From assembly GCF_058153355.1 (NCBI RefSeq), contig NZ_CM177019.1: a DNA stretch of 64,000 nt, one strand, 5' to 3'. Each line of letters starts with the position of its first letter. The stretch's first letter is position 1. The notes under the pieces were generated by a model. That model saw only the letters and a program-made list of their open reading frames with translations, searched no databases and was not told the origin of the DNA. This document shows, piece by piece, positions 58,442 to 59,407 of this stretch. The position numbers and the translations under genes are program-made.

Positions 58442-59407
58442 ATGAAAAAGAATAAGTACTCAACTCCCTTATGGATGCTTGCCACGATTCTTGCGGGTAT
58501 GCTCTCCCCTATGCAATCAGCGGTGAATGGTCAATTAGGTCACTGGTTACAGGATGGTAATGCATGCGCAGTTATCTCCTTTGCCAGTGGTTTAGTCGTG
58601 ATGTTTTTTATTATTATGGCGCGAAAAGAAACCCGGCAACAATTTGCGGCAATTCCTTCTCTGATTAAAAACCGAAAAGTTCCTCTCTGGAACTGGTTTG
58701 CCGGTCTCTGTGGAGCGATGGTGGTATTTTCTGAAGGCGCATCAGCCAGCGCACTCGGGGTCGCAACGTTTCAAACCGCACTGATCTCCGCGCTATTGCT
58801 GTCTGGTTTACTTTGCGATCGCTTTGGTATCGGTGTCGACGAGAAAAAATACTTTACCCCTTATCGCATCATCGGTGCATTATTTGCGGTTATTGCTACG
58901 ATTTTTGTTGTGTCACCTCAGTGGCATTCTACCTCTTTCATCTTACTTGCCATTCTTCCGTTCTTAGCTGGTTTGCTTGCAGGATGGCAGCCCGCTGGAA
59001 ATGCAAAAGTAGCTGAAGCTACGGGATCCATGCTGGTTTCAATCACCTAGAATTTCATCGTTGGATTTTGTGTTTTAGGCACAGCGCTAGCTATTCGTGT
59101 CGCATTAGGGCACGTCACTGTTCAATTACCAGATGTCTGGTGGATGTATCTTGGCGGCCCGCTTGGACTAATGTCTATCGGTTTAATGGCCATTTTGGTC
59201 AGAGGTCTGGGGTTACTGATGCTGGGGGGTGCTTCAACGGCGGGCCAGTTACTGGGATCAGTATTGATTGACGTATTAATTCCATCGCTGGGCAATAGCG
59301 TTTATCTGGTCACGATCATCGGAACACTGTTTGCACTGGTCGGTGCAATTGTTACCACTATTCCGGAATACAGAACCTCGAAAACAATGAAGAAAATGGA
59401 GGTATAA
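58442..59407 (+). pseudogene. DMT-superfamily (DUF606/YdcZ-like) transporter interrupted by a single in-frame amber codon
   Basis: ORFs 58442-59050 and 59144-59407 are in the same frame; only one stop (TAG 59048-59050) separates them and the intervening codons continue a hydrophobic TM segment. Confidence 0.6.

Follow-up and report, generated by a model that had tools for sequence, protein, structure and literature searches.

The DMT transporter gene analyzed here, which lies in a 64,000-nucleotide stretch of DNA (RefSeq assembly GCF_058153355.1, contig NZ_CM177019.1; hereafter the window), is very probably a genuine nonsense pseudogene that has been inherited. One G>A transition converted the conserved Trp203 codon, TGG, into an amber codon in a 10-TM, two-repeat YdcZ-type transporter, the third gene of a rikA-STM3548-STM3549-STM3550 cluster. 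RF1 would terminate translation once residue 202 has been added, where the seventh helix begins, leaving a product without roughly TM7-TM10. DMT transport would need both five-helix repeats for the substrate pathway, and for this reason the 202-residue product should be non-functional. Later decay in the window's lineage would comprise a Val263Gly change in the dead part and an IS2 element in the next gene, and an end of translation 357 nt ahead of that gene's coupled start would lower phosphotriesterase expression through polarity. The pseudogene is already known in public annotation and mechanistically is nothing new. It resembles the ordinary nonsense pseudogenes of IS-rich E. coli and Shigella lineages in its single premature stop, its place in an accessory cluster, its neighbors hit by IS elements and frameshifts, and its PGAP flag. 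The features are listed in Table 1.

Table 1. Features of the DMT pseudogene and of the surrounding cluster, in window coordinates.
Feature	Position	Strand	Basis
rikA (DeoR-HTH + PfkB ribokinase), the cluster's first gene, intact in the window	56399..57613	+	ORF list, domain search; PMC13432705
GATase1-like gene, STM3548 orthologue, intact in the window	57627..58385	+	ORF list, RefSeq annotation
Pseudogene of a 321-codon two-repeat YdcZ-type DMT transporter, STM3549 orthologue	58442..59407	+	Translation, alignment, Pfam, RefSeq
Truncated 202-aa product: whole first YdcZ repeat and helix 1 of repeat 2	58442..59050	+	ORF list, Pfam, hydropathy
Synonymous T in codon 159 (gene nt 477), linked to the TAG	58918	+	18-sequence comparison, 181-nt query
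Premature amber TAG, codon 203; ancestral TGG (Trp)	59048..59050	+	ST131 alignment, 20 homologues, allele counts
Residual 87-codon ORF, C-terminal part of repeat 2	59144..59407	+	ORF list, Pfam
Val263Gly (GTT>GGT), rare nonsynonymous change 3' of the stop	59229	+	Alignments, allele counts
Phosphotriesterase-related gene (STM3550 orthologue), 5' fragment of 21 codons	59410..59472	+	Sequence
IS2 (1331 bp) in the phosphotriesterase gene; CACTT duplication at 59468-59472 and 60804-60808	59473..60803	-	ORFs, sequence
Phosphotriesterase-related gene, 3' part	60804..61780	+	Sequence reconstruction

Direct translation of positions 58442-59410, read together with the sequence and the ORF list, places the 202-aa and 87-aa ORFs in a common frame, with the TAG as the sole stop that separates them. 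The 31 codons between this stop and the second ORF encode NFIVGFCVLGTALAIRVALGHVTVQLPDVWW, in which the hydropathy profile marks residues 205-223 as a hydrophobic segment, and the read-through product has 321 residues. On all of these points the earlier note had described the frame correctly. The 966-nt frame of the window is 99.6% identical (4 differences) to the intact 321-aa gene of E. coli ST131, encoding WP_000739817.1 in strain ST-131, so the continuous open frame is not a product of chance. When the window is aligned with the ST-131 allele and two further carriers of TAG, the change from TGG to TAG at codon 203 is seen to be a G>A transition at position 59049. The window sequence is from E. 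coli: a 1081-nt query around the gene matched 2125 complete-genome records at 95-100% identity, annotated as 'DMT family transporter'. The NCBIfam models gave no match to the protein.

The residue at codon 203 is strongly conserved. Trp203 is present in 20/20 full-length homologues aligned, within the conserved motif TGSMLVSITWNFIVGF. These homologues come from Citrobacter, Salmonella, Klebsiella, Pectobacterium, Proteus, Anaerobiospirillum, Bifidobacterium and several Lactobacillaceae; each is a single protein of 314-342 aa with 64-93% identity to the E. coli protein. Eight intact E. coli alleles likewise carry TGG at this codon. Alignment with intact orthologues thus identifies a TGG codon for Trp203 at the site and bears out the reading of the interruption as a single nonsense codon. 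Among the 20 homologues, none ends naturally at codon 203 with a conserved independent gene downstream, and codon 203 is the end point only for the 202-aa protein that the TAG allele encodes. A wider list of homologues consists mostly of proteins of similar length, the exceptions being fragments. The closest known counterparts are Salmonella STM3549 and the Citrobacter proteins (93% identical to the E. coli DMT protein) and the intact E. coli alleles (99%). STM3549 and WP_000739817.1 also share the four-gene neighborhood seen here (rikA, GATase1-like, DMT, phosphotriesterase), and the window copy differs from them in W203* and V263G.

The second ORF does not have the properties of a gene in its own right. 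Its ATG is preceded by ...CCAGATGTCTGGTGG, where GGTGG, the sole run rich in purines, sits immediately against the start codon, and the window sequence contains no Shine-Dalgarno at a usable distance. Against the Pfam profile PF04657 (DMT_YdcZ), this ORF matches only profile positions 69-139 of 140, and its 23.7 bits fall below the 24-bit cut-off of the family. An independent gene starting at 59144 was rejected on these grounds and because no split homologue was found; we infer that the 87 codons are a leftover of the old frame. Scans of positions 56000-59600 found promoter-like sites at the level of shuffled sequence and 6 terminator-like sites, slightly more than in shuffled sequence (mean 3.3, sd 1.7); neither result is informative.

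Family assignment supports the two-repeat architecture that the earlier note had proposed. The intact allele scores 157.5 bits against PF04657, above the curated cut-off and in two stretches, one in each half of the protein; the N-terminal ORF of the window reaches 111.4 bits over a single stretch (residues 10-154, E=5e-32). The N- and C-terminal halves of the intact protein align with each other (22% identity, E=8e-5) and, with the hydropathy peaks, define two five-helix repeats (10-TM). E. coli YdcZ, with 149 aa, is a single repeat, whereas the 321-aa protein is a fused two-repeat form whose second repeat is truncated in the window. A sequence search of the PDB returned no relative (best E-value 0.39). 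For this reason, an AlphaFold model served to assess the fold, although its confidence is only moderate (pLDDT 63.7, pTM 0.56). All seven Foldseek matches of this model at E<=0.001 are 10-TM DMT transporters, including PfCRT, the CMP-sialic acid transporter, the triose-phosphate translocator (TPT) and LicB. YddG (5i20) follows at an E-value of about 2e-3. The TM-scores of these matches are 0.5-0.65.

Mapped onto this architecture, the stop falls at the start of the hydrophobic segment 205-223 in the hydropathy profile and within a helix spanning residues 197-221 in the AlphaFold model; alignment with repeat 1 identifies this segment as the second helix of repeat 2. The truncation removes 119 of 321 residues, roughly TM7-TM10, or the repeat 2 profile positions from about 35 onward. 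Judged from DMT architecture, these residues would be essential. The presence of a complete first YdcZ repeat in the 202-aa product nevertheless raises the idea that it works alone as a half-size transporter, or that it joins the 87-aa piece to form a split transporter, and single-repeat YdcZ proteins of 149 aa do exist as a precedent. The position of the break makes this extremely improbable. It lies inside repeat 2 and not at the repeat boundary near residue 160, leaving one orphan helix, and 31 codons holding the whole of segment 205-223 separate the stop from the next start, which has the poor translation-initiation context described above. Split homologues are lacking as well. Furthermore, the two repeats are so dissimilar in sequence that repeat 1 is presumably specialized for pairing with repeat 2.

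Population data establish that the amber codon is a real and common allele. The exact 61-mer centered on the allele is found with TAG in 599 of the 2038 complete E. coli records that contain the locus (about 29%) and with TGG in 1428 of them. Carriers of TAG include O104:H4 2009EL-2071, an O121 strain, O145:H28 RM13516, ATCC 8739 and several NCTC strains. Among the carriers of TGG are CFT073, Nissle 1917, ATCC 25922, ST131 strains and some O103:H2 strains; the first three and the ST131 strains belong to phylogroup B2. The TAG is also present in at least 21 further public contigs, where all 8 loci that were read carry it. In other public assemblies, gene callers split the DMT gene into the 202-aa and 87-aa ORFs seen in the window, and the 202-aa product belongs to a cluster of 685 member sequences. 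In all TAG carriers inspected, RefSeq (PGAP) labels the gene 'DMT family transporter, internal stop', a pseudogene; they include strain NT1F10, whose sequence matches the window at 100% identity across the query.

These counts bear directly on the origin of the stop, for which the earlier note had offered either a very recent nonsense mutation or a sequencing error. The nonsense mutation stands; the recent date and the error do not, given 599 complete E. coli records with the same TAG. That the window differs from the intact allele by a single base at this codon is what an error of sequencing or assembly, or a mutation private to the isolate, would look like. Yet the identical base recurs in all those independently sequenced genomes and in the additional contigs, in strains as diverse as O104:H4, O121, O145:H28 and ATCC 8739, and it is tied to a synonymous marker, which leaves this explanation with almost no probability. 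A sequencing error in particular is refuted by the counts of 599 TAG and 1428 TGG records, together with 614 records that carry the linked site.

The synonymous marker also informs the history of the inherited nonsense allele. An allele comparison of 18 sequences, ten with TAG (the window among them) and eight with TGG, contains 17 variable sites in the gene. The synonymous T, which lies 131 nt upstream of the TAG, was found in 10/10 of the TAG carriers sampled and in 0/8 of the TGG carriers. A 181-nt query spanning both sites retrieved 614 records with at most one mismatch, compared with 599 exact TAG 61-mers. This almost complete linkage argues for one origin. In strain CE0011b, a TAG segment sits inside an otherwise TGG-type haplotype; such a mosaic implies intragenic recombination and hence some age for the TAG allele. 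Taken together, the allele patterns point to a W203* that probably arose once and is old, inherited and widely distributed. The first reading of the locus needs correction in two respects: the stop is an old and widespread allele, and the residue it replaced is a conserved tryptophan. In other respects, the gene is an ordinary E. coli/Shigella pseudogene.

The sequence 3' of the stop has changed little. Its frame is still open with few changes, as expected at a divergence of about 0.1-1%. The main TAG haplotype carries three nonsynonymous changes and no synonymous change in this part, numbers too small to test for relaxed constraint. The three are G239V, which sits in a GGPLG motif, V263G and T286S, and two of them affect conserved positions. 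Residue 263 is Val or Leu in all homologues and Gly in the window and NT1F10. V263G is carried by 10 of the 2042 E. coli records, which all belong to a single group of livestock strains lacking the IS2 insertion, and by 0/8 of the public contigs that share the window's IS2 junction. The underlying substitution lengthens a run of G from 5 to 6, and V263G in the window may be a homoplasy at this G-run or a base-call error.

An open and almost unchanged frame after the stop is also what would be expected if the gene were down-tuned and not dead, with a suppressor tRNA or near-cognate decoding at the amber codon supplying a functional amount of full-length transporter. The high frequency of the TAG allele and the intact state of the other three cluster genes in some carriers also fit such read-through. 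Basal read-through of UAG in wild-type E. coli is, however, only on the order of 0.1-1%; some low-level read-through of this TAG may still occur. A nearby suppressor tRNA was discarded as a source, the window containing no tRNA gene, and recoding is not a conserved feature of the family: no homologue has a stop at this position, and the 1428 E. coli records mentioned above have TGG. Near-cognate insertion of any residue other than Trp would, moreover, replace the conserved Trp. Downstream of the stop, the main TAG haplotype has changed only nonsynonymously and partly at conserved positions, and the neighboring genes accumulate independent lesions; both observations likewise count against read-through, which is accordingly rated very unlikely. 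A dead, inherited nonsense allele remains the preferred reading.

Genomic neighborhood analysis identifies the locus as the counterpart of Salmonella STM3547-3550, with the same order of PfkB/DeoR kinase, GATase1-like, DMT and phosphotriesterase genes. The first gene of the Salmonella STM3547-STM3550 cluster was recently named rikA, a ribokinase, by authors who state that nothing is known about STM3548-3550 and that there are no studies of STM3549 (PMC13432705). In the window, the start of the phosphotriesterase-related gene is coupled to the end of the DMT gene, with a GGAGG 7 nt before its ATG. IS2 splits this gene after codon 21, just before a PHEH motif, and removal of IS2 with one CACTT copy restores an ORF of 344 aa. 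The IS2/phosphotriesterase junction is rare, being found in only 2 complete E. coli genomes (an O121 strain and VL7S7) and in at least 21 other public contigs.

Independent lesions are frequent throughout the cluster in other strains. The 19 sampled sequences contain W203*, at least five different rikA lesions, two in the GATase gene and three in the phosphotriesterase gene. Across the strains inspected, rikA shows a stop at codon 81, three 1-bp deletions (nt 129, nt 248 and nt 385), a 4-bp deletion of nt 972-975, an IS1 truncation and an insertion of IS2. The GATase gene carries an IS1 insertion or a 1-bp deletion at nt 117; FDAARGOS_943 has lost it entirely to IS1, which also truncates rikA and the DMT gene in that strain. 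The phosphotriesterase gene is interrupted either by IS2 after codon 21 or by an IS3-family element near nt 320, and a 3' truncation is its third lesion. Among the strains inspected, all four genes are intact only in ST131-type strains and WP4-S18. Of ten TAG carriers tabulated (the window and nine strains), six have one or more further lesions in the cluster, while the other three genes are intact in the remaining four; FDAARGOS_943, outside these ten, is one more case with secondary lesions. The cluster is thus not uniformly dead among TAG carriers, and the split suggests that the DMT stop came first in the lineage. As a separate observation, the codon-81 stop of rikA occurs in a lineage with an intact DMT gene (L005, L012, L014, L016 and L017). 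Met90 has been proposed as a possible real start of the RikA kinase (PMC13432705); codon 81 lies upstream of it, so this stop may remove the DeoR HTH only and spare the kinase.

The repeated, independent inactivation of the cluster outside ST131/CFT073-type strains could also be read as adaptive loss and not as neutral decay, with the amber allele reaching its present frequency of about 29% through an advantage, in some niches, of losing transport of the substrate. This reading is considered unlikely. Under the preferred reading of an inherited nonsense pseudogene, the locus adds one more documented case to an accessory, sugar-related cluster and matters little in itself. Its practical value lies elsewhere. 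W203* and its linked synonymous site provide a convenient marker of lineage for E. coli and Shigella. In addition, many non-B2 E. coli are natural knock-outs of the transporter, the kinase or the phosphotriesterase of the rikA cluster and are possible natural controls in a search for its substrate.

Beyond the cluster itself, the wider surroundings differ between strains. In the window, the cluster adjoins sbmC, yeeA and tmaR, behind an IS110-family (ISSso6-like) element at 55033-56208, while in other strains it adjoins cobUST instead. Coverage of positions 52000-64000 stays below 80% in every complete E. coli genome. ISSso6, IS630 and IS1 abound in the closest records to this interval, FDAARGOS_943 and 944. 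The arrangement suggests an IS-mediated rearrangement around the cluster in the window and possibly a source of Shigella type. Downstream of the cluster, at approximately 62432-63811 and 61820-62112, lie an ISL3-family transposase ORF and, going by how matching E. coli loci are annotated, a gamma-glutamyltransferase fragment. Both are pseudogenes in all E. coli loci inspected, which places the cluster within an old, degraded island. Finally, the DMT proteins of Enterobacterales are 64-69% identical to those of Bifidobacterium and Lactobacillaceae, an unusually high value for such distant phyla, and this similarity suggests that the transporter or the cluster may have been transferred horizontally between them.
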